A stretch of DNA of 64,000 nt from Escherichia phage vB_EcoS_MM-1: sequence record PV577657; one strand, written 5' to 3'. Made by a program: the position numbers and the translations under genes. Shown here piece by piece: positions 1 to 40,798 of this stretch. A model generated the notes under the pieces. That model did not search any database, was not told the DNA's origin, and worked only from the letters and a program-made list of their open reading frames with translations. Numbering within the stretch: position 1 is the stretch's first letter; every line of letters begins with the position of its first letter.

Positions 1-98
1 CTTCGCCTAAGCCATTCAGCCAACGGTCGATTTATCTTGTTCTGTCATGTTGCTTCTCCAGTTCAATTTATGTAATTATTATACAGAACTTTTGGAAA

Positions 99-386
99 CT
101 AAGCAACTACATTTTTTAAAAATTTGATGCCTTTCTTTTTCTTCTTATATTTCCACGTTAAGGGATTCTGTCGATTATGAACGCTTGAGATCTTTGTCTC
201 GTCAAAGTTCTTCAATATCATGTAATCACAGGATAATTGTTCTAATGGAATGTGATCACCGTCAAAAGCGTATACATAAGGCTGTTGACTAGCACGATAA
301 TGATAGACTTTGTTAATTCTACGTTTCAGCAACTTATCCGCGCAGTAAATAAAGAAGTTTTCAGGATGCATCAGCAGCTCCCTCAA
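99..386 (-). CDS. hypothetical early protein
   Basis: 95-aa ORF; GGAG-type RBS before internal Met suggests alternative start near 371; no recognisable motif. Confidence 0.55.
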   Translation of the reverse strand: MRELLMHPENFFIYCADKLLKRRINKVYHYRASQQPYVYAFDGDHIPLEQLSCDYMILKNFDETKISSVHNRQNPLTWKYKKKKKGIKFLKNVVA

Positions 387-469
387 TTTGGTGCACCCTG
401 TTCGTATCGAACGAACCTCTCAAGCTCTTCAGGCAAGCGCTAATCCATCTCAGCTAAAGGTGCAAATTT

Positions 470-546
470 TGGCAAACCTACTAGGACTTGAACCTAGACC
501 GTACGGTTTTGGAGACCGACATGCTGTCCAGTAACACTCTAGGAAT
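470..546 (-). tRNA. tRNA-like gene, possibly anticodon CCA (Trp); degenerate acceptor stem
   Basis: Encoded CCA (TGG on + strand), perfect T-arm CTAGG/TTCAAGT/CCTAG, anticodon-like loop CTCCAAA; acceptor stem has 2 mismatches. Confidence 0.4.
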
Positions 547-553
547 GCAGGAT

Positions 554-630
554 TGGCGTCCTGTGCGGGGATCGAACCCACAAATCCTACCTTGAAAGGG
601 TAGTGACTTTACCAGTTTGTCTAACAGGAC
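554..630 (-). tRNA. tRNA-Glu (anticodon UUC)
   Basis: 7-bp acceptor GTCCTGT/ACAGGAC, T-loop TTCGATC, anticodon stem CTACC/GGTAG with loop CUUUCAA, encoded CCA. Confidence 0.7.
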
Positions 631-637
631 TTAAATT

Positions 638-728
638 TGGTGTTGGATGATGGAGTCGAACCACCCGAGACCCTTCCGAGTCGGCAGATTTACAGTCTGC
701 TTCGCTACCTCTACGATACTAATCCAAC
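638..728 (-). tRNA. tRNA-Tyr (anticodon GUA), long variable arm
   Basis: Acceptor GTTGGAT/ATCCAAC, anticodon arm GCAGA-CUGUAAA-UCUGC (same as the E. coli tRNA-Tyr anticodon arm as I recall it), 88 nt class II, encoded CCA. Confidence 0.7.
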
Positions 729-856
729 ATATTTAAAAGTATTCAAATACTAGTTTAAACACTTTTAGATATGTTTCCAAATTAGATAACTATTATATCA
801 AGTTTTATGGCACTGAGCAAGTCAAATTTTAAAGAACTTGCTCAGTGCTGTATTAG

Positions 857-1132
857 TTAGTCGAACTTAGGAGCGACAGTTAAGGAGAATGGAAGTTCGA
901 AAACTTCTTCGCCCTCATCACTAACAGTAATTACACGACCTTTAAGTTCAGACATTGAAATATCAATATCAGCTTTTGCATCTGGAGCCATGCCAGCTTC
1001 AATACATTTAGCTTTAACTTCCGGCAGAAGTTCTACATCGTAGAAATAAAGCCATTCAATCTCACCTTCCCAGCCTTCCCAGGATTTACAGATTGCACTT
1101 TCAATACCAGTTGCTATAACACGATTTTGCAT
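857..1132 (-). CDS. hypothetical early protein
   Basis: 91-aa ORF with AAGGAG RBS and upstream T5-type promoter. Confidence 0.65.
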   Translation of the reverse strand: MQNRVIATGIESAICKSWEGWEGEIEWLYFYDVELLPEVKAKCIEAGMAPDAKADIDISMSELKGRVITVSDEGEEVFELPFSLTVAPKFD

Positions 1133-1139
1133 TCGTTAA

Positions 1140-1200
1140 CTCCTTCATCAATTTATATAACTATTATACCAGAAATTTAAAGCAAAAGGCAAGTACATTT
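1140..1200 (-). promoter_or_regulatory. T5-type early sigma70 promoter
   Basis: Minus-strand TATAAT followed by conserved ATAAATTGATGAAGGAG initial transcribed region/RBS. Confidence 0.5.
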
Positions 1201-1222
1201 TTAAAAATTCTGTTTGGAGGAG

Positions 1223-1429
1223 CTAAACTCCAGATTCTTCAGCTAAGTCTAGGCTAATAAGAGATATAGCCATAATTGCTGCTCCGTGTTCTCTTTCTCC
1301 TGTCTCTTTAGCTAGGGTTATAATATCAAGAAATTGCTTATGAAAGTCTGCAACCTCTTGAGTCATACCTGCCTCAGCAATCATGCCTTTAAGCATGAAA
1401 CGTTGTGCGGTAATTTCGGGATTAGCCAT
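1223..1429 (-). CDS. hypothetical protein
   Basis: 68-aa ORF, GGAGAAA RBS. Confidence 0.6.
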   Translation of the reverse strand: MANPEITAQRFMLKGMIAEAGMTQEVADFHKQFLDIITLAKETGEREHGAAIMAISLISLDLAEESGV

Positions 1430-1589
1430 GTTGTTTCTCCAGTTTCATGTTTAATAGTCTACAAATAAAATCAATGTCTTCATCTGTGCCTAGATCTCTA
1501 TCTTCAAGAGTTGCCTTGAAGTTTTTCGTCAATTCCATGAGGATAACTTCTCTAGAACGACGTGTTGGCGGAGGTGGATGTCTATACAT
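1422..1589 (-). CDS. small hypothetical protein (55 aa, PPPP motif)
   Basis: Hand-translated ORF MYRHPPPPTRRS... with AAGGA RBS; stop overlaps next start (ATGGCTAA); below ORF-track cutoff. Confidence 0.35.
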   Translation of the reverse strand: MYRHPPPPTRRSREVILMELTKNFKATLEDRDLGTDEDIDFICRLLNMKLEKQHG

Positions 1590-1604
1590 CTTATTTCCTT
1601 AAGT

Positions 1605-1681
1605 TGGTAGGGGTGGTGGGATTCGAACCCACAAAACCTGAATTTTAAGTCCAGTACCTATGCCAATTCGATTACACCCCC
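1605..1681 (-). tRNA. tRNA, anticodon tentatively UAA (Leu-like) but class I length
   Basis: Perfect T-arm GTGGG/TTCGAAT/CCCAC, G1-U72 acceptor, anticodon loop CUUAAAA; D-arm does not fold cleanly by hand. Confidence 0.5.
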
Positions 1682-1782
1682 ATGTAATCAGTTTATTAGT
1701 TGATACATATTATAGCCTAGTGAAAATCCTACTACTAGTCCCACAAACCAACCAATATAATAATCTTTTAGTTTCACAGGTA

Positions 1783-1968
1783 TTATCCTCGTTCAATATC
1801 TAGGGAAACACCGCAGTTAGGATTAATACCTGTACCGTTGCAATTTGAACAAATCCAGATATTGCAAAAAGTATCTCCTGCTTCTGCATCAGAACTTTCA
1901 CCAATTCCCCTACACTCAGGGCAGGCACATTCTTCTAGCTCTTGCTTGAGTTCTTGAAACTTGGACAT
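1783..1968 (-). CDS. small Cys-rich protein, putative zinc ribbon
   Basis: 61 aa with CxCPxC...CxxxxCxxC...C spacing. Confidence 0.6.
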   Translation of the reverse strand: MSKFQELKQELEECACPECRGIGESSDAEAGDTFCNIWICSNCNGTGINPNCGVSLDIERG

Positions 1969-2186
1969 ATAGTCTCCTTAGTCAATTACTTTTGAGGCTT
2001 CAAGGGAGTCGATATAGTATACGTTTTCTACCATAATCATATAATCTGCCACTTTATCCATAGCTTGGGCCTCAGAGGTAGCTCTGGCTAACCTATATCC
2101 TTTTTTATATTCATCCGGGTATTCTCTATCTTGAATAAATACAACATAAACTATGTATAATTCCACTTGTAATCCCCTAATTAAGT

Positions 2187-2264
2187 TGGTGGCTCCCCGA
2201 GGATTCGAACCTACGTACCTTCCGGTTATGAGCCGGGTGCTCATACCATATGAGCTTGAGAACC
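2187..2264 (-). tRNA. tRNA with CAU anticodon (Met or Ile2)
   Basis: D-arm GCTC-ATATGGTAT-GAGC, anticodon arm CCGG-CUCAUAA-CCGG, T-loop TTCGAAT, acceptor with two G-U pairs, encoded CCA. Confidence 0.6.
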
Positions 2265-2270
2265 AGAATT

Positions 2271-2359
2271 TGGCGGAAGAAGTGGGAATCGAACCCACAA
2301 GGCTATATTTCAAACCGACAGATTAGCAATCTGCTGCAATACCGTTATGCTATTCTTCC
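2271..2359 (-). tRNA. tRNA-Ser (anticodon GCU), class II
   Basis: Acceptor GGAAGAA/TTCTTCC, anticodon arm GCAGA-UUGCUAA-UCUGU, long variable arm, T-arm GTGGG/TTCGATT/CCCAC. Confidence 0.6.
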
Positions 2360-2380
2360 GAATTTATAAGATATATTATA

Positions 2381-2902
2381 TTAGAAATTTAGCTTCATAG
2401 CAAGAAAATTTTTCAAGTTTTCGGTAGACATCTCATCCACATCTACGGGAGAAACAAAGCCGTTTAATTTTCTAGCAAATTTTTCACCCGCAGGATCGTT
2501 GTCTCCGACAGCTACCAATTTAAAAGGTAATAATTTCAGTTGCTTTAATAACGCTTTTCCTGGAGAAGAACCTAACATTGCCAGGGCTGGATAACCAGCG
2601 TTATGTAGCGCAACTGCCTTAAATACAGATTCAGCGATCAATACTACTTTTTCATCTCCATTGAGAGTTTCTAGTCCCCATACACACTGGGTAGTAGAAT
2701 AAGTAAAATATTTAGCTTCAAAGGGACACTTACCATGACCTTTTGGAGCAGAAGGATTATACGTCTGATAGCCTCGCAACATCCCGGAGAAGTCATACAA
2801 CGGGACTGTTAGCCATCCTTCCGGACTTAACCAGCAATGATATTTATCTGTATCAAATCCTCTGGATAAGAGGTGCTGTGTTAGCTCATCAACATTCATA
2901 TT
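2381..2902 (-). CDS. Toprim-domain protein (stand-alone primase-like/nuclease-like fold)
   Basis: Conserved Glu (IAES) and GDNDPAG DxD motif; likely start MNVDELTQ after GAGAGGAA RBS. Confidence 0.6.
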   Translation of the reverse strand, partial: NMNVDELTQHLLSRGFDTDKYHCWLSPEGWLTVPLYDFSGMLRGYQTYNPSAPKGHGKCPFEAKYFTYSTTQCVWGLETLNGDEKVVLIAESVFKAVALHNAGYPALAMLGSSPGKALLKQLKLLPFKLVAVGDNDPAGEKFARKLNGFVSPVDVDEMSTENLKNFLAMKLNF

Positions 2903-2904
2903 TG

Positions 2905-2990
2905 GTTCCTCTCTCAAATTTATAGATATATTATACAGAGAATTTAGCATTCAAGCAATCAAATTTTTTAACTTTTTAGAGGAAAATCAT
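2905..2990 (-). promoter_or_regulatory. T5-type early promoter
   Basis: Minus-strand TTGCTT -17- TATAAT, then conserved ATCTATAAATTTGAGAGAGGAA. Confidence 0.6.
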
Positions 2991-3069
2991 AGGGCACTTA
3001 AGGGTAGCAGATAAGTGGGGAGGACCAAAATTTGTGACCCCACTAAAAATCCGGGGGCAATTTTTAAAG

Positions 3070-3110
3070 ACCCCTTGACATTTTCGCTGGGGTAGTGTAA
3101 AGTATATGTT
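3070..3110 (+). promoter_or_regulatory. sigma70-like promoter of counter-oriented island
   Basis: TTGACA at 3075-3080; AT-rich -10 candidates 17-23 bp downstream. Confidence 0.4.
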
Positions 3111-3165
3111 ATGGATGAGTGATCAAAGAGACACACATTTTCTATATACTAGGAGGTGTCAAAAT

Positions 3166-4155
3166 ATGACAGAAGAAGTAGCTAAGAGTCCTGAGACCGT
3201 CGCTAGCGTTGCAGCAGAACTGCACCGTCACGAGGAATCAGATAAGAAAAAGTGGGAGAAGGTCAGAGCCTACGAAGAAAAACATCGTGAACACGATGAT
3301 GAAGAAGAAGATGACGATGATGAACATTGTCATAAATATGGAAAACATAAAATGCAAGAACCAGTAAACGTATTCACTAGTGGCTTCCCTGGCCTACTGG
3401 GTGGTTACCCAGCAAACGCAGGTGCTTTCGGTGGTGAAGGTATGGGACTATTCGGAGCTATCCTAATCGGTGCTCTATTAACCGGCGGATTCGGTGGTTT
3501 CGGTGGATTCGGTGGACGTGGTGTAGTTGGTGAAGGTACCGCAGTTGATGCAGTACTTCAGAACCAAGATACCGCTAGTATTCTAGCAGCTATCAACACT
3601 ACTCGTACAGAGGCTAACCAGGGTACTGGAGCTGTTTTAAGCGCAGTTAACAATGGTTTTAGCCAGACAACCCAAAACCAGAGCCGTGATACTCAGTCTG
3701 TACTAACTACGATCTACGGTACAGATGCTAATCTGTCTAATCAGATCTGCCAGGAAACTCGCAACGTTATTCAGGGTCAGTTCGATCTTTCTCGCCAGAT
3801 TGATCAATCTTTCGCAGCTAACCAGATAGCTCGTGCACAAGATAAGTTTGATTCTGCACAGATCGCTTTCCAGCAGACTTTACAAACTAATAACCAGTTT
3901 GCCGCTGTTCAGGCTCAGATGTGTGCTAACCAGAACTCTCTGGAACGTCAGATCGCTGAATGTTGCTGTGAACTTCAGACTGCGATCGCTGGTGTAACTA
4001 CTGCGCGTATCCAGGATGAGTTAGACGCATGTCGCCTACGTGAAGCAATCGCTGCGGGTAGCGGTGCTAACGGTCAGGTAATTAATCAAATCGCTTTAAG
4101 TCTTGGTGCTATCACTCAGACTCTGGCTGGTCTGCAGGCTAAACTGCCGGCTTAA
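3166..4155 (+). CDS. acidic N-terminus / Gly-zipper hydrophobic segment / Q,N,T-rich coiled-coil protein
   Basis: AGGAGG RBS before MTEEV; D/E-rich N-terminus with HCH motif; GGFGGFGGFGG segment; host-optimal codons. Confidence 0.7.
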   Translation: MTEEVAKSPETVASVAAELHRHEESDKKKWEKVRAYEEKHREHDDEEEDDDDEHCHKYGKHKMQEPVNVFTSGFPGLLGGYPANAGAFGGEGMGLFGAILIGALLTGGFGGFGGFGGRGVVGEGTAVDAVLQNQDTASILAAINTTRTEANQGTGAVLSAVNNGFSQTTQNQSRDTQSVLTTIYGTDANLSNQICQETRNVIQGQFDLSRQIDQSFAANQIARAQDKFDSAQIAFQQTLQTNNQFAAVQAQMCANQNSLERQIAECCCELQTAIAGVTTARIQDELDACRLREAIAAGSGANGQVINQIALSLGAITQTLAGLQAKLPA

Positions 4156-4176
4156 TATTAAGGGGAGGAGCCCATT

Positions 4177-4593
4177 ATGAGTAAATATGGTTTTGTAAAT
4201 AACGGACTTAATCAAAGTATGGGCTCCCAGCAGCCCATTCCGGGTCTGGATAACCCCTACTTACAACAGTTGCAACAGCGTTTAGCAGAAGCGCAACAGA
4301 TGCAGCAACAACTCCAGCAAAACCCTGGAAGTGTGAGTCCTATGCAAATGATGCAGCAAATGAGCGGGCAGTCGCAAATGCCTCAACAAATGCAGCAACA
4401 GGTGCCTCAGCAGCAAGTTCAGCAACAAACCCAACAACCGCAGGTTTCTGCGGAAGGACAGGCAGTACTAGCCCTTTTCGAAGACTTCGCAAAGACAGAG
4501 GATGGGAAACAGCTTGTATCACTTATGGGTAAGTTTAATAGCTTCTGCCAAAGCCAAGTTGCAAAAGCTCAAAATGGGGGTAGTAACTCCTAA
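4177..4593 (+). CDS. glutamine-rich low-complexity protein
   Basis: 138 aa, long Q-rich tracts (QQMQQQLQQ..., QQVPQQQVQQQTQQPQ); strong RBS GGGGAGGAG. Confidence 0.7.
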   Translation: MSKYGFVNNGLNQSMGSQQPIPGLDNPYLQQLQQRLAEAQQMQQQLQQNPGSVSPMQMMQQMSGQSQMPQQMQQQVPQQQVQQQTQQPQVSAEGQAVLALFEDFAKTEDGKQLVSLMGKFNSFCQSQVAKAQNGGSNS

Positions 4594-4602
4594 GGAGGAA
4601 AT

Positions 4603-4797
4603 ATGTGTTGCAGAAAATCTGTTTCGTGCTGCCCAGTGCCTGTAGCACGTTGTTGCTCTCCAGCAATGTTTACGCAAATACCGGCGTTCAATCCCTTTGC
4701 CTTTAAGCCTACTCTTATCCTGCCCCCTAGAGTAGATTTTCAGTCAAGATTGGCCTCCCGTATGGGTGGTTGCTGTACACCGAGAGTATGGTTCTAA
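4603..4797 (+). CDS. small Cys-doublet-rich protein
   Basis: 64 aa with four CC doublets; RBS TAAGGAGG; directly precedes terminator. Confidence 0.55.
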   Translation: MCCRKSVSCCPVPVARCCSPAMFTQIPAFNPFAFKPTLILPPRVDFQSRLASRMGGCCTPRVWF

Positions 4798-4810
4798 ACC
4801 AAAAACAAAA

Positions 4811-4843
4811 GCCCCTGCCGAAAGGTAAGGGGCTTTTTCTTTT
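4811..4843 (+). terminator. rho-independent terminator
   Basis: GCCCCTGCC..GGTAAGGGGC hairpin followed by TTTTTCTTTT. Confidence 0.7.
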
Positions 4844-4850
4844 GCCTTAA

Positions 4851-4888
4851 ATACAGAAAAGCCCGCGCTCTCGTAGGAAACGCGGGCT
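4851..4888 (-). terminator. rho-independent terminator for SPFH gene
   Basis: GCCCGCG...CGCGGGC hairpin; T-run on minus strand. Confidence 0.65.
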
Positions 4889-4912
4889 TGGTTCGAAGAT
4901 TACGTGTAACTA

Positions 4913-5860
4913 TTACTTGTTACGCATATCCATGATCATTTGACCATCGTAGCCAGTACCTACCACAGTCTGAGGTACACCACCTTGATACTTCTGAGCA
5001 CGGATCATTTCAACTTCCAGTTGTTTCCAACGAATCATTTCAGGAGTAATGGTACGTTGCAATGCGGCGTTAGCTTCAGCTTCTTTCTTAGCTGCGTACA
5101 GTTTAGCATCTGCGTCACGTTCATTAGCAATAGCTTGGTTGTTACGAGCTTCACGATCTGCTTCTGCTTGTTTAACTTTTTGCTGTGCTTCCTGTTCAAC
5201 GCGAGCAAGTTCAGCTTTCGCAGCATTAACTTGCTCTTCACGAACTTTGGTATTCTGTACCTGTTCCATGATTACTGGCGGCAAGGTAATATCCTGAAGG
5301 AATACCTGCTTAACTGTGTAACCATATGGGCGCGCATACTCTTCAACTTCCTGTTGAATTGCAGTTTGCAATTGAGCCTGAATTTTAGCATCAAATAAAT
5401 CTTGTGCTTTAGGTACAGACTTACCAAACTCACGAATAGTAGACAGTAATTTTTCAGTTACATACTTGTCTAGTGCCTGATCCTGAGTACCTGCGTTAAT
5501 ACGGTTAATCGGTGCTTTAGAACCATCAAACTGCAACATAACAGTCAGGTCAACAGTGGATTTAAACTTATCCTGGCTAGGAACCTGAAGTTTATCTAAT
5601 TTTACAGCAATATCTTTTGTACTAAAAGTATCGAAAGATGCAAACGGGTTTACAAGATGGAAGCCCGGCAATACTGGATTAGGGTCTACTTTACCCAGGA
5701 ATGTTTGGGTTTTAACCGTACCATCAGAAACAATAGTATATGAATTAAAAGCTAGGATTAAACCTGCTAAACCAACTACAGCACCAATACCCCAACGTTT
5801 AATAGTACGAATTACTTTCTGCTCAGAAGTCAGTTCTTTCATATTTTTAGTAGCAAACAT
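4913..5860 (-). CDS. SPFH/band-7 (prohibitin/HflC-like) membrane protein
   Basis: N-terminal TM segment (WGIGAVVGLAGLILAF), SPFH-like core, C-terminal A/E/K/Q-rich coiled coil. Confidence 0.75.
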   Translation of the reverse strand: MFATKNMKELTSEQKVIRTIKRWGIGAVVGLAGLILAFNSYTIVSDGTVKTQTFLGKVDPNPVLPGFHLVNPFASFDTFSTKDIAVKLDKLQVPSQDKFKSTVDLTVMLQFDGSKAPINRINAGTQDQALDKYVTEKLLSTIREFGKSVPKAQDLFDAKIQAQLQTAIQQEVEEYARPYGYTVKQVFLQDITLPPVIMEQVQNTKVREEQVNAAKAELARVEQEAQQKVKQAEADREARNNQAIANERDADAKLYAAKKEAEANAALQRTITPEMIRWKQLEVEMIRAQKYQGGVPQTVVGTGYDGQMIMDMRNK

Positions 5861-5894
5861 ATATTTCCTTTGTTTTAGTTACAGTTAATAAAAT

Positions 5895-5969
5895 TGGCCG
5901 AGGTGACAGGATTCGAACCTGCATAAAGGAATTTAGAAGACTCCTGCCTCTCCCTTAGACTACACCCCG
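5895..5969 (-). tRNA. tRNA-Arg (anticodon UCU)
   Basis: Acceptor CGGGGTG/CACCTCG (1 mismatch), anticodon arm GGAGU-CUUCUAA-AUUCC, T-loop TTCGAAT, encoded CCA. Confidence 0.55.
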
Positions 5970-6472
5970 TTTAAGTATTTTTAAGAACTCTCGTAAAAAC
6001 TCTTAAAAATACAGACGATACCGGGAGAGTCATAAGTCTCACTCATTAAGTATTTCAAGACAAAATACAGTAACGTCTATTATTTTCCAGTTTAAGTCAG
6101 GGTGACTTAGTGGTTATGTCCTGCGGTATATTGAGGACTCGGTTAGGCTTGGGGTCATGACTTCCCACCTTTTGCTGCTACTCAACAGGAGTTATCGCGA
6201 ATTACCTGTGCTATTGTGCACCATTAGTGACATCTCTCATGTCAGCATTTCCCACTTTGTGGATAGCTTGAAAAACTACTCCGATATGGAGAAAGAACTT
6301 CACTATCCTAGAATACCTTCTAAAGTTCTTCTTTAGCCTGGACATAGTTAAATCGTAATAAAACTATTCAGCAGACTGGTTGGTTAGTCTGGAACCAACT
6401 ACCGCGTGGTTTAGGCAGTGCGCAACTAACCTCGGAAGCTTTTATGTTAAAAGCATCAGTTATCCAGTTCTT

Positions 6473-6545
6473 ACCGACCGTAGGATTCGAACCTACATCT
6501 TCCACCAGTTACGGCTTGATAATACCAATTATACTAGGACGGCAG
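6473..6545 (-). tRNA. tRNA-like element (perfect T-arm, no clean anticodon arm)
   Basis: GTAGG/TTCGAAT/CCTAC T-arm with partial acceptor pairing; possibly degenerate. Confidence 0.35.
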
Positions 6546-6744
6546 TGTTACTACATAAGTGATTTCCACACCCCACTATTTATAAATCAGAGAAGAGTTT
6601 AGGGGAGAGGTTTCAGACGCCTCATTTTACACGTTCTAGCCACTAACCGGGATTGCCGCCCCCTGTGTACTAGTTTTACAACTAACCCACCGACTCTATT
6701 CAATGCGCTCCGGTTGGGATTCTGCACTCAGCGTAATCGGCTCG

Positions 6745-6800
6745 CTGTTCCCTAATTTATGAATATATTATACAGAATTTATAAGCATTTAGCAAATGAA
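6745..6800 (-). promoter_or_regulatory. T5-type early promoter driving leftward transcript into noncoding/tRNA region
   Basis: Minus strand TTGCTA -17- TATAAT then ATATTCATAAATTAG. Confidence 0.55.
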
Positions 6801-6803
6801 TTT

Positions 6804-7238
6804 TTAGAAAAATTCACTAGCAATCAAAGCAGTTGTTTTACCGTCATAACGTCCGGGAAATTCTGCCTTAATAGTTTTCATTAATAGAGCTTTGGTAATA
6901 CCTGGGTTTAATTTAACCAGTTCTGCAAAATACTCACGAATCTGAACCTCAGTCAGTTGACTTGGCTGATACTCTTGCAGCATGGAATAAAGCAGTTGCT
7001 CATAGTCTACATCAGTAGGAACTTCCATACCAACTTTAATAGCGCGTTGTTTTGCATTTTCTAGAGCCTTAATCTGAGCTTTCAGATAGGCTACGAACTC
7101 GGTTCGAGTAACAATGTCTTTATCAATACGTTGCAGATCACCAATCATGGTCTGAAGATTAAGTGCCCGTTCCTTATCACCGTGAGTACGTGCTAGACTA
7201 AGTAGTGCACGAAGGGTCATTAGAATATTTTCACCCAT
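6804..7238 (-). CDS. hypothetical protein
   Basis: 144-aa ORF, no recognised motif. Confidence 0.7.
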   Translation of the reverse strand: MGENILMTLRALLSLARTHGDKERALNLQTMIGDLQRIDKDIVTRTEFVAYLKAQIKALENAKQRAIKVGMEVPTDVDYEQLLYSMLQEYQPSQLTEVQIREYFAELVKLNPGITKALLMKTIKAEFPGRYDGKTTALIASEFF

Positions 7239-7476: not shown

Positions 7477-7944
7477 TTAAGTTTTAGTGACAACAGGTTT
7501 ATAGAATGTATGTCCCTTAATCTTAGTTGTTTTCTTAAACTTCTTTGTCCAGTAAGGTTTATCTTTACCACTATGGAAGTATAGTGCTCCATATGTAGGA
7601 TCTTGTGGTAAATCAACGTAGTATATCACTCTAGCTAAATTCTTAGCGGTTTGCCAAGCCTCATCAGTTTTATCAACTTTTGGTCTCTTAGATACCCAAG
7701 AGAACTGGTTAGACTGATATACTACTTTACAGTAGGAATCTGGGAATTTACCGGAGTTTACACGGTTTTTAGTAACATGTGCAATCGCCGTCATTCCCTT
7801 TATGCCCTCACCACGACTTTCGAAATAGATATTTTTAGCAATGCAATCTATTTCTTTTGCATCGTGCGATGCCTGACTACTAAAGCTGAAGGTAAGGGCA
7901 GCTACTAAAAGCAAAGCTGCCTTCATTCTTTTTACTCCTGCCAA
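7477..7944 (-). CDS. secreted SleB/CwlJ-like cell-wall hydrolase
   Basis: Signal peptide MKAALLLVAALTFSFSSQA; SleB-like motifs (NIYFES, VTKNRV, QFSW). Confidence 0.7.
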   Translation of the reverse strand: MAGVKRMKAALLLVAALTFSFSSQASHDAKEIDCIAKNIYFESRGEGIKGMTAIAHVTKNRVNSGKFPDSYCKVVYQSNQFSWVSKRPKVDKTDEAWQTAKNLARVIYYVDLPQDPTYGALYFHSGKDKPYWTKKFKKTTKIKGHTFYKPVVTKT

Positions 7945-38230: not shown

Positions 38231-40798
38231 TTGAAAATCGCAGTAGTTGATAAAGCTCTAAATAACACTCGTTACGATAAACATTTCCAGCTATATGGCG
38301 AGGAAGTTGATGTATTTCATATGTGTAACGAGAAGTTATCTGGTCGTTTGCTTAAAAAGCACATTACTATTGGAACACCAGAAAACCCATTTGATCCGAA
38401 TGATTACGATTTTGTTATACTAGTAGGTGCTGAACCTTTCCTGTATTTCGCAGGTAAGAAAGGCATTGGTGACTATACTGGTAAACGTGTAGAGTATAAT
38501 GGATATGCTAACTGGATTGCGAGTATCAGCCCAGCCCAGTTACACTTTAAACCTGAAATGAAACCAGTTTTCGATGCAACAGTAGAAAATATCCACGATA
38601 TTATCAATGGTCGTGAGAAGGTTGCAAAAGCTGGTGATTACCGTCCTATTACTGACCCTGACGAGGCGGAAGAATATATCAAGATGGTGTATAATATGGT
38701 TATCGGACCTGTCGCATTCGACTCCGAAACCTCAGCACTATACTGTCGAGATGGTTATCTGCTTGGTGTTTCTATGTCTCACCAAGAGTATCAGGGTGTA
38801 TATATCGATTCTGATTGTCTCACCGAGGTTGCAGTATATTATCTCCAGAAAATTCTGGATAGTGAAAACCACACTATTGTTTTTCACAACCTGAAGTTTG
38901 ATATGCACTTTTATAAGTACCATCTGGGACTTACTTTTGATAAAGCGCATAAAGAACGCAGGCTCCATGATACTATGTTGCAGCATTATGTTCTAGATGA
39001 ACGTCGTGGTACTCATGGCTTGAAATCTCTAGCAATGAAGTATACCGATATGGGTGACTATGACTTCGAACTAGATAAGTTCAAAGAGGATTACTGCAAA
39101 GCACATAAAATCAAGAAAGAAGATTTCACCTATGATTTAATTCCGTTTGATATTATGTGGCCTTACGCTGCGAAAGATACCGATGCTACCATACGTTTGC
39201 ACAACTTCTTCTTACCAAAAATTGAGAAGAATGAAAAACTTTGTAGTCTGTATTATGATGTCCTAATGCCTGGTTGTGTATTTCTCCAGCGTGTTGAGGA
39301 TCGTGGTGTACCTATTTCTATTGATCGTTTAAAAGAAGCTCAGTACCAGTTAACCCATAATCTGAATAAAGCTCGTGAAAAACTGTATACTTATCCAGAA
39401 GTCGTTCAGCTAGAGAAAGATCAGAACGAAGCGTTTAACCCAAACTCTGTTAAACAACTCCGTGTTCTTCTGTTTGATTATGTTGGCTTAACTCCAACAG
39501 GTAAATTGACGGATACTGGAGCAGATTCTACAGATGCAGAAGCTCTGAACGAATTGTCTACGCAGCATCCAATTGCTAAGACTCTACTAGAGATTCGTAA
39601 GCTAACTAAGCTGATCTCTACTTATGTTGAGAAGATTCTTCTGAGTATTGATGCAGATGGTTGCATTCGTACTGGTTTCCACGAACATATGACTACTTCT
39701 GGTCGTCTGAGTTCTTCCGGTAAACTGAACTTGCAACAGTTACCTCGTGATGAATCTATTATCAAGGGTTGTGTAGTAGCTCCTCCTGGGTATCGTGTAA
39801 TCGCATGGGACTTAACAACTGCGGAAGTTTATTATGCTGCTGTTCTATCTGGTGATAGAAATATGCAACAAGTATTTATCAACATGAGAAATGAACCAGA
39901 TAAATACCCCGACTTCCACTCTAACATCGCACACATGGTATTTAAGCTCCAATGCGAGCCTCGTGATGTTAAAAAGTTATTCCCAGCTCTGCGTCAAGCA
40001 GCTAAAGCAATCACCTTTGGTATTCTGTATGGTTCTGGCCCAGCTAAAGTAGCTCATTCTGTTAACGAAGCTCTTCTGGAACAGGCTGCTAAGACAGGCG
40101 AACCGTTTGTAGAGTGTACGGTTGCAGATGCTAAAGAGTATATAGAAACTTACTTCGGTCAGTTCCCGCAGCTTAAGCGTTGGATTGATAAGTGCCATGA
40201 TCAGATCAAGAATCATGGATTTATCTATAGTCACTTTGGTCGTAAACGTCGTCTGCATAATATCCACTCCGAAGACCGTGGTGTTCAAGGTGAAGAAATC
40301 CGTTCTGGATTTAACGCAATCATTCAGTCTGCTTCTTCTGATAGTCTCCTTTTAGGTGCTGTAGATGCAGATAATGAGATCATTTCTCTTGGCCTAGAAC
40401 AAGAGATGAAGATTGTTATGCTGGTTCACGACTCCGTAGTTGCTATTGTTCGTGAGGATTTGATCGACCAATACAATGAAATCCTAATTCGTAATATTCA
40501 GAAAGACCGCGGTATTAGTATTCCTGGCTGTCCGATTGGTATTGATTCAGATTCTGAAGCTGGAGGTTCTCGCGACTACTCTTGTGGTAAGATGAAGAAA
40601 CAGCACCCATCAATCGCTTGTATTGATGATGATGAATATACTCGTTATGTCAAGGGTGTATTACTTGATGCAGAATTCGAGTATAAGAAACTAGCTGCAA
40701 TGGATAAAGAGCATCCAGATCATAGCAAATACAAGGATGATAAGTTTATTGCTGTATGTAAAGATTTGGATAACGTGAGAAGGATTCTCGGTGCTTGA
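38231..40798 (+). CDS. family A DNA polymerase with 3'-5' exonuclease domain
   Basis: TTG start after AAGAGGAGA; exo and Pol A motifs; 855 aa, matching my recollection of T5 DNA polymerase. Confidence 0.9.
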   Translation: MKIAVVDKALNNTRYDKHFQLYGEEVDVFHMCNEKLSGRLLKKHITIGTPENPFDPNDYDFVILVGAEPFLYFAGKKGIGDYTGKRVEYNGYANWIASISPAQLHFKPEMKPVFDATVENIHDIINGREKVAKAGDYRPITDPDEAEEYIKMVYNMVIGPVAFDSETSALYCRDGYLLGVSMSHQEYQGVYIDSDCLTEVAVYYLQKILDSENHTIVFHNLKFDMHFYKYHLGLTFDKAHKERRLHDTMLQHYVLDERRGTHGLKSLAMKYTDMGDYDFELDKFKEDYCKAHKIKKEDFTYDLIPFDIMWPYAAKDTDATIRLHNFFLPKIEKNEKLCSLYYDVLMPGCVFLQRVEDRGVPISIDRLKEAQYQLTHNLNKAREKLYTYPEVVQLEKDQNEAFNPNSVKQLRVLLFDYVGLTPTGKLTDTGADSTDAEALNELSTQHPIAKTLLEIRKLTKLISTYVEKILLSIDADGCIRTGFHEHMTTSGRLSSSGKLNLQQLPRDESIIKGCVVAPPGYRVIAWDLTTAEVYYAAVLSGDRNMQQVFINMRNEPDKYPDFHSNIAHMVFKLQCEPRDVKKLFPALRQAAKAITFGILYGSGPAKVAHSVNEALLEQAAKTGEPFVECTVADAKEYIETYFGQFPQLKRWIDKCHDQIKNHGFIYSHFGRKRRLHNIHSEDRGVQGEEIRSGFNAIIQSASSDSLLLGAVDADNEIISLGLEQEMKIVMLVHDSVVAIVREDLIDQYNEILIRNIQKDRGISIPGCPIGIDSDSEAGGSRDYSCGKMKKQHPSIACIDDDEYTRYVKGVLLDAEFEYKKLAAMDKEHPDHSKYKDDKFIAVCKDLDNVRRILGA

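Follow-up and report, generated by a model that had tools for sequence, protein, structure and literature searches.

On the minus strand of the window, the 64-kb stretch of DNA that was analysed as a whole, the list of open reading frames contains an ORF at 4913..5860 with an ATG start, 315 codons and a stop codon. It is a CDS for a phage SPFH/band-7 protein, homologous to T5.080 (YP_006908.1) and to AAX12012.1 of T5. A Shine-Dalgarno-like AAGGA could be read from the sequence 5 nt upstream of the ATG (5866..5870, minus strand). Over positions 2900..6400 the window matches several T5-like phages at 100% identity, and many others at 97-99%. The record of the T5-like phage BB1 notes the gene as T5.080 (YP_006908.1), and T5 strain ATCC 11303-B5 encodes a 99.4% identical protein labelled 'putative transmembrane protein; IPR001107: band 7 protein'. 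Further homologs are recorded as 'SPFH domain protein', 'PHB domain-containing protein' or 'lipoprotein', and as early as 2006 a table listed SPFH/Band 7 matches for RB43, 44RR and Aeh1, which are T4-like phages (PMC1524935). The gene was therefore not new to the databases: T5.080 is on record, with gene and domain annotated in T5 and in hundreds of phages. Our finding is a re-identification of an annotated gene and adds no evidence for a mechanism involving FtsH. Literature searches for the function of phage-encoded SPFH proteins gave only mentions in genome annotations and no functional study.

Genes and signals around the SPFH gene

Upstream of the gene, on the same strand, lies a tRNA-Arg(UCU) at 5895..5969, which was identified by the tRNA search and in the T5 record. 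It is separated from the SPFH gene by 35 nt and is probably co-transcribed with it. A sigma-70-like promoter, TTGCTA-17-TATAAT (6767..6795, minus strand), was recognised by consensus match only and precedes the whole stretch of non-coding DNA, tRNA and SPFH gene. The non-coding part, about 830 bp long (5970 to 6800), harbours a tRNA-like element at 6472..6543 (minus strand), which scored 35.5 bits against the Rfam tRNA model (gathering score 29) and was not called by ARAGORN. In AY587007 a pseudo-tRNA is annotated between ORF076 and tRNA-Arg, the same interval as this element, and the two are matched by interval only. A 189-aa Toprim ORF at 2381..2950 (minus strand) covers only positions 141-337 of the 435-position primase profile PHROG 849 and looks like a stand-alone primase fragment inside the tRNA region, judging from the profile match.

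Just past the SPFH stop codon, the sequence contains a strong intrinsic terminator hairpin with 12 pairs and a T run (4859..4889, minus strand). By homology, this hairpin is also the site of the 'major single-stranded nick 3, 32.6%' annotated in AY587007, at about 4861-4868 of the window. A second GC-rich hairpin with A and T runs on its flanks was read by eye at 4805..4845, between the convergent units, without assignment to a strand, and probably ends the plus-strand gene pair described below. The BB1 record places one terminator per strand in this gap. The sRNA search at 4805..4845 returned sub-threshold matches only.

Two genes on the plus strand, 3166..4155 and 4177..4593, are transcribed towards the SPFH gene, and the hairpin terminators occupy the gap between the convergent units. 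The product of 3166..4155 belongs to PHROG 8119, a family of unknown function, and carries a glycine-rich hydrophobic segment, GMGLFGAILIGALLTGGFGGFGGFGG. Both the convergence and the glycine-zipper segment had been noticed in the original prediction and are present. The same protein begins with an acidic His-rich N-terminus, and its helical tail is rich in Q/N/A and contains a CCC motif; its counterpart is split in AY587007 (ORF072/ORF073) and intact in AY543070. The second gene encodes a Gln-rich protein of 138 aa (PHROG 7894), which AY587007 names 'cAMP-dependent protein kinase catalytic subunit'. We found no Pfam kinase match in it at E<=10 and the name looks spurious. Neither the SPFH protein nor its two plus-strand neighbours matched a defence system in PADLOC.

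The position of the gene in different genomes suggests when it would be used. In T5 it is the last gene in a leftward unit that starts from the putative early promoter T5P22 and continues through ORF077, ORF076, the pseudo-tRNA and tRNA-Arg. In T4-like genomes the gene lies within the regB/vs.1/tk/rI region of early and middle genes, and in a T7-like contig among genes of DNA metabolism. It was never located among structural genes in the contexts examined. From this we infer early expression. The phage origin and the early-region setting that had been proposed from the sequence were borne out by the complete identity of the region to T5-like phages and by the place of the T5 gene downstream of a putative early promoter.

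Predicted fold, membrane anchor and topology

The Pfam Band_7 profile (PF01145) matched residues 52-225 of the SPFH protein with E=2e-17 and 64.2 bits, well above the cutoff of 23.6, and the PHROG 200 profile matched residues 5-314 with E=1.9e-86. An AF2 model built on 26 homologs reached a mean pLDDT of 76.7. It predicts a transmembrane helix at residues 12-38, an alpha/beta core at 41-192, a helix of 76 residues at 195-270, a further helix at 273-290 and strands at 298-312. Confidence falls below 50 across the last approximately 25 residues, i.e. in the part that would close a cage.

The domains can be placed along the minus strand as follows. Codons 1-22 (5795..5860) encode a basic N-terminal tail with 6 K/R versus 2 D/E, predicted to be cytoplasmic. 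Codons 23-42 (5735..5794) form the single transmembrane anchor, WGIGAVVGLAGLILAFNSYT, which has no cysteine or lipobox. It was recognised by hydropathy and in the model, the hydrophobic peak being predicted at residues ~23-42 and the 19-residue window at residues 25-43 showing a mean hydropathy of 1.8. The SPFH alpha/beta core follows in codons 43-194 (5279..5734), as delimited by Pfam, alignment, model and structure search, and VPSQDKFKS is its most conserved motif. Codons 195-290 (4991..5278) comprise the A/E/Q/K-rich helix 195-270 and the helix 273-290, supported by composition (26% A, 14% E, 11% Q and 10% K in residues 201-270), model and structure search. In the predicted structure these helices correspond to the coiled-coil wall (CC1/CC2) of SPFH cages. 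Finally, alignment and model define a conserved C-terminal segment, GGVPQTVVG..Y.G..IMD, with two short strands in codons 291-315 (4916..4990). It appears to occupy the place of the cap-forming C-terminus in other SPFH cages, at low model confidence.

Taking these predictions together, we regard it as established at the level of the model that the protein has an SPFH fold and that its domains follow each other as in cage-forming SPFH proteins. The phage-encoded SPFH/band-7 membrane protein that had been proposed for this ORF was thus confirmed by the Band_7 match above cutoff, the SPFH fold of the AF2 model and the predicted transmembrane anchor. Its detailed description, with one N-terminal transmembrane helix, an SPFH-like core and a long A/E/K/Q coiled coil, agrees with hydropathy, Pfam, the model and composition. 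The structure prediction and the comparison with HflK/C, both suggested beforehand, returned an SPFH fold, with HflC and HflK among the structural matches.

The subfamily of the protein was more difficult to determine. In the structure search, erlin, prohibitin, HflK/C, stomatin and QmcA all matched at 11-19% identity and no subfamily was singled out. Searching the solved structures with the family profile gave the best sequence match to QmcA (E=2.8e-7), followed by prohibitin-2 (E=7e-5) and HflC (4.6e-3). The NCBIfam models gave no SPFH-type match to the protein even at E<=10, the sole match being irrelevant (E=1.8). The HflC-like assignment in the original prediction did not hold: besides the missing NCBIfam match, the phage has one gene instead of an HflK/HflC pair, and identity to HflK/C is only 13-18%. 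We rejected membership in HflK/HflC on these grounds.

The phage protein resembles HflK/HflC in its architecture and would do so in its predicted N-in/C-out topology. However, HflK and HflC are a heteromeric pair encoded by two genes, whereas the phage SPFH protein comes from a single gene and is devoid of the long cytoplasmic N-terminal region of HflK. Prohibitin and erlin have an N-in/C-out topology as well. Prohibitin 1/2 and erlin 1/2 are eukaryotic organellar SPFH cages built as hetero-oligomers, they are 11-19% identical to the phage protein, and their clients, the m-AAA protease and IP3 receptors, differ from the phage case. QmcA forms a homo-oligomeric cage, and the same is proposed here for the phage SPFH protein. 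The stomatin-type QmcA of E. coli faces the cytoplasm and is encoded together with an NfeD partner, YbbJ. In contrast, the phage protein has the opposite predicted topology and no NfeD gene is present.

The segment before the transmembrane helix is net positive in 26/26 aligned homologs, although the bias is modest, with a mean of 3.3 K+R in the N flank versus 1.7 in the 15 residues past the helix. By the positive-inside rule, this charge predicts a cytoplasmic N-terminus and a periplasmic SPFH domain, from which we infer an N-in/C-out, periplasm-facing topology. A profile search over all ORFs of the window detected one SPFH gene only, so any oligomer should be homomeric; single SPFH genes were found also in the other phage contexts examined.

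PHROG 200 and many GenBank records call the protein a lipoprotein. This reading has the annotation label in its favour. The SPFH protein contains zero cysteines, which makes a lipobox impossible, and 23/26 aligned homologs have none either. We therefore rejected the label and consider a lipoprotein extremely improbable.

Distribution among phages and absence from T5st0

One SPFH family, PHROG 200, is present in more than 700 sequenced phage genomes, the model phage T5 included: tblastn recovered 725 phage records, among them T5-like, T4-like and Vibrio phages. A word-indexed protein search gave 159 relatives, all of about 300 aa. An exhaustive search retrieved 957 cluster representatives at E<=1e-3, but the number dropped to 170 at E<=1e-10, a sign that the clade is small and distinct. 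The SPFH proteins of T5-like siphoviruses are 75-80% identical to those of T4-like myoviruses (RB16/RB43, Slopekvirus and other ~178-kb Enterobacter/Cronobacter phages), i.e. between phages without detectable core-gene similarity. Lower values were obtained for Aeromonas T4-likes (about 61%) and for Vibrio phages (31-41%). The T4-like proteins RB43ORF139c and 44RRORF098c (PMC1524935) belong to the same family as T5.080, with 61-80% identity. A 41.7-kb contig filed as a Cetobacterium MAG is a T7-like phage with a 40% identical SPFH copy between the genes for nucleotide kinase and DNA polymerase, and the viral structure library (BFVD) contains SPFH proteins in many further phages and giant viruses. 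The gene has spread laterally among unrelated virulent phages of Gammaproteobacteria.

Among close relatives of T5 the gene is nearly universal. About 440 records have the SPFH gene at >=80% identity, compared to 441 with a T5-type DNA polymerase at >=90%, a comparison of totals and not of individual records. Natural truncations or frameshifts occur occasionally, e.g. in NG_S8, bastian and CPRSB. A number of records appear to carry a wrong label. T5-like sequence with 96-99.7% identity is found under the names 'Listeria phage LM 4-11-1' and 'Campylobacter phage C13', and several T4-like-looking contigs of 174-178 kb have proteins named after a Klebsiella plasmid, Enterobacter asburiae and Flagellimonas marina.

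The gene is missing from the deletion strain T5st0. The GenBank record of T5 st0 has 113,238 bp versus 121,752 bp in the wild type and marks a 'recombination site for st0 deletion mutant' with tRNA-Asp on one side and a truncated T5p079 on the other, the SleB-like hydrolase coming next after T5p079. Within the 20 kb surrounding this junction, tblastn with the SPFH protein gave no match, and nucleotide similarity to the window restarts only at window position 7234. The shortfall of ~8.5 kb agrees with the stretch of wild-type T5 in which the SPFH gene (39712-40659) is located, and the missing interval comprises the SPFH gene, tRNA-Arg, both plus-strand genes and the primase-like fragment. Positions 1..7233 of the window have no counterpart in these 20 kb of st0; parts of them (e.g. 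6942..7233) are also diverged from wild-type T5. T5st0 is a viable heat-stable strain in routine use, and since it lives without the SPFH gene, tRNA-Arg and both convergent genes, all of these are dispensable for growth on laboratory E. coli, where the SPFH protein is not required to form plaques. The original prediction had held that a deletion without phenotype and without host interaction partners would speak against it. T5st0 bears on one half of this statement, as a viable phage lacking the gene, and its viability shows that the gene is dispensable, not that it has no function.

Gene neighbourhoods and possible roles

In the surroundings of the SPFH gene, none of the neighbours recurs as a conserved partner in every lineage examined. 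A candidate for an associated gene, to be taken as a lead, is a SleB-like cell-wall hydrolase (Pfam Hydrolase_2). In the window this hydrolase, recognised by Pfam and provided with a signal peptide, is encoded on the minus strand at 7477..7944, 1.6 kb upstream of the SPFH gene. Five phage lineages have the SPFH gene and a Hydrolase_2 gene on one strand, 0.05-5.5 kb apart and in varying order. The hydrolase gene is upstream by 1.45-2.2 kb in T5-likes, by 5.5 kb in the T7-like contig and immediately upstream in the metagenomic phage L014 (4241-4933). It is downstream by 0.4 kb in the ~153-kb phages and by 0.7-1.0 kb in the ~90-kb phages L043 (9578-10012) and L044, and by 6.4 kb in a further ~90-kb phage, L055. 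In the loci L010 and L013 the Hydrolase_2 gene is located at 5347-5838 and at 62-481, respectively. The hydrolases are mutually only 23-36% identical over the five lineages (23-46% with L055 as the sixth locus), versus 70-78% for the SPFH proteins of the T5-like, ~153-kb and ~90-kb lineages. The two genes are therefore not one recently moved block.

When the lineages were modelled as random placements, the proximity of the two genes gave a Fisher p=6e-6, and p=5e-4 when both genes were confined to one third of the genome. Both tests were post hoc, on the data in which the association was found, and the lineages may not be fully independent. A second type of neighbourhood was seen in RB16, GAP161 and PMBT1, where tk, one ORF, rI (the gene of a lysis-inhibition regulator), rI.-1 and SPFH follow each other on one strand. 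The coordinates of this arrangement are 4263-5927 in L005 (RB16), 3218-4900 in L008 (PMBT1) and 3190-4855 in L009 (GAP161). Aeromonas phage 31 (L006) has its rI 3.2 kb downstream of the SPFH gene. These phages are related and the adjacency of rI is therefore little more than one observation.

Considering the predicted architecture, we lean towards a scaffold model, which as a whole appears somewhat more plausible than its negation. An accessory early phage protein would be anchored in the host inner membrane by one N-terminal helix, its N-terminus remaining cytoplasmic. It would then assemble as a membrane-bound ring or cage, a homo-oligomer facing the periplasm; such a homo-oligomeric assembly is probable by analogy with the solved full-length SPFH assemblies, all of which are rings or cages. 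The cage would fence off a patch of the inner membrane and hold or exclude one or several membrane proteins during infection. Its client might be host FtsH, as the precedent, or alternatively a phage envelope or lysis protein. Should the protein indeed capture FtsH or an envelope/lysis factor, this would be the first example of viral use of an SPFH cage to partition the host membrane.

The most specific version of this idea is that the phage protein is a functional mimic or competitor of HflK/C, and that the phage cage would capture host FtsH hexamers via their periplasmic domains and shift proteolysis of substrates such as LpxC, sigma-32, SecY or phage proteins. The cages of HflK/C enclose the periplasmic domains of FtsH (PMC12048511), HflC and HflK are among the structural matches, and the predicted topology and architecture are common to both systems. 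One homolog from a Vibrio phage is even named 'putative modulator of FtsH protease', an annotation only. However, prohibitin, erlin and QmcA match equally well or better, and both the lack of an HflK/HflC match in NCBIfam with the low identity and the missing cytoplasmic N-terminal region of HflK argue against close equivalence. The identity is too low to align single residues reliably, such as Arg191 of HflK, which contacts FtsH. The T5, T4-like and T7-like carriers are virulent, so the classical hfl/CII logic is inapplicable to them. By analogy alone, capture of FtsH is possible and rather unlikely.

A partner inside the locus had been suggested as well, namely the glycine-zipper protein of 3166..4155, in a pair resembling stomatin/NfeD operons. 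The two genes are adjacent and both products are predicted membrane proteins. This pairing was not supported by our data. The genes are convergent with terminators between them and not co-oriented, the neighbour has no NfeD or other Pfam match at E<=10, and its single-sequence model is all-helical with no beta-barrel, at a pLDDT of 49 which is too low to rely on. Moreover, the neighbour was found in 222 phage records versus 725 for the SPFH family. Nearly all of the 222 are T5-like and cover about half of T5-likes, and the gene is therefore absent from all T4-like carriers. None of the other SPFH gene contexts listed contained an NfeD gene. We consider the pairing very improbable.

Two further explanations turn from proteolysis to the envelope. 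The protein may be part of a module for envelope or lysis control, in which a periplasmic cage works with the SleB-like hydrolase or with a holin/antiholin (RI) in cell-wall remodelling, lysis timing or superinfection responses. The recurrent hydrolase, the order rI, rI.-1, SPFH and the clear signal peptide of the T5 hydrolase are consistent with it. On the other hand, the association was tested on the data that revealed it, T4-like, Vibrio and several metagenomic carriers of the SPFH gene have no Hydrolase_2 within 8 kb, and most of the 1283 phage records with Hydrolase_2 are without this SPFH family. Some of the other linked hydrolases have no obvious signal peptide, the three rI-adjacent phages are not independent, and T5st0 retains the hydrolase though its SPFH gene is gone. 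We hold such a module to be doubtful. Alternatively, the protein could be a general membrane stabiliser without a specific client, which would preserve the integrity and energisation of the inner membrane while host expression is off during a long infection. In bacteria, SPFH proteins have been linked to stress tolerance and respiration as well as to the organisation of membranes (PMC12005517, PMC10434171). The gene is found mainly in large virulent phages, and in one lineage it adjoins the TerD/TelA stress genes. Yet the very high conservation across hosts fits a specific interaction at least as well, and a stabiliser of this kind seems improbable to us. 

Extending the scaffold model to the whole phage SPFH clade, one may speculate that its cage acts in the periplasm on the envelope and not on FtsH. 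It would confine or time a hydrolase or a holin/antiholin, or shield the inner membrane from membrane-targeting abortive-infection effectors. This would explain the spread over T5-, T4- and T7-likes, the adjacency to a hydrolase or rI, and the location in accessory regions with NAD-salvage genes, and at present we see it as a long shot.

In three lineages, genes of NAD metabolism are found a few kb or less from the SPFH gene, at 6106-7167 in L005 (RB16), 6841-8921 in L011 (SE131) and 11167-12347 in L064. Over these lineages they are of different types, namely NMN adenylyltransferase/NUDIX, PRPP synthetase plus NAMPT, and SIR2 plus NADAR. Their presence suggests an accessory or counter-defence neighbourhood.
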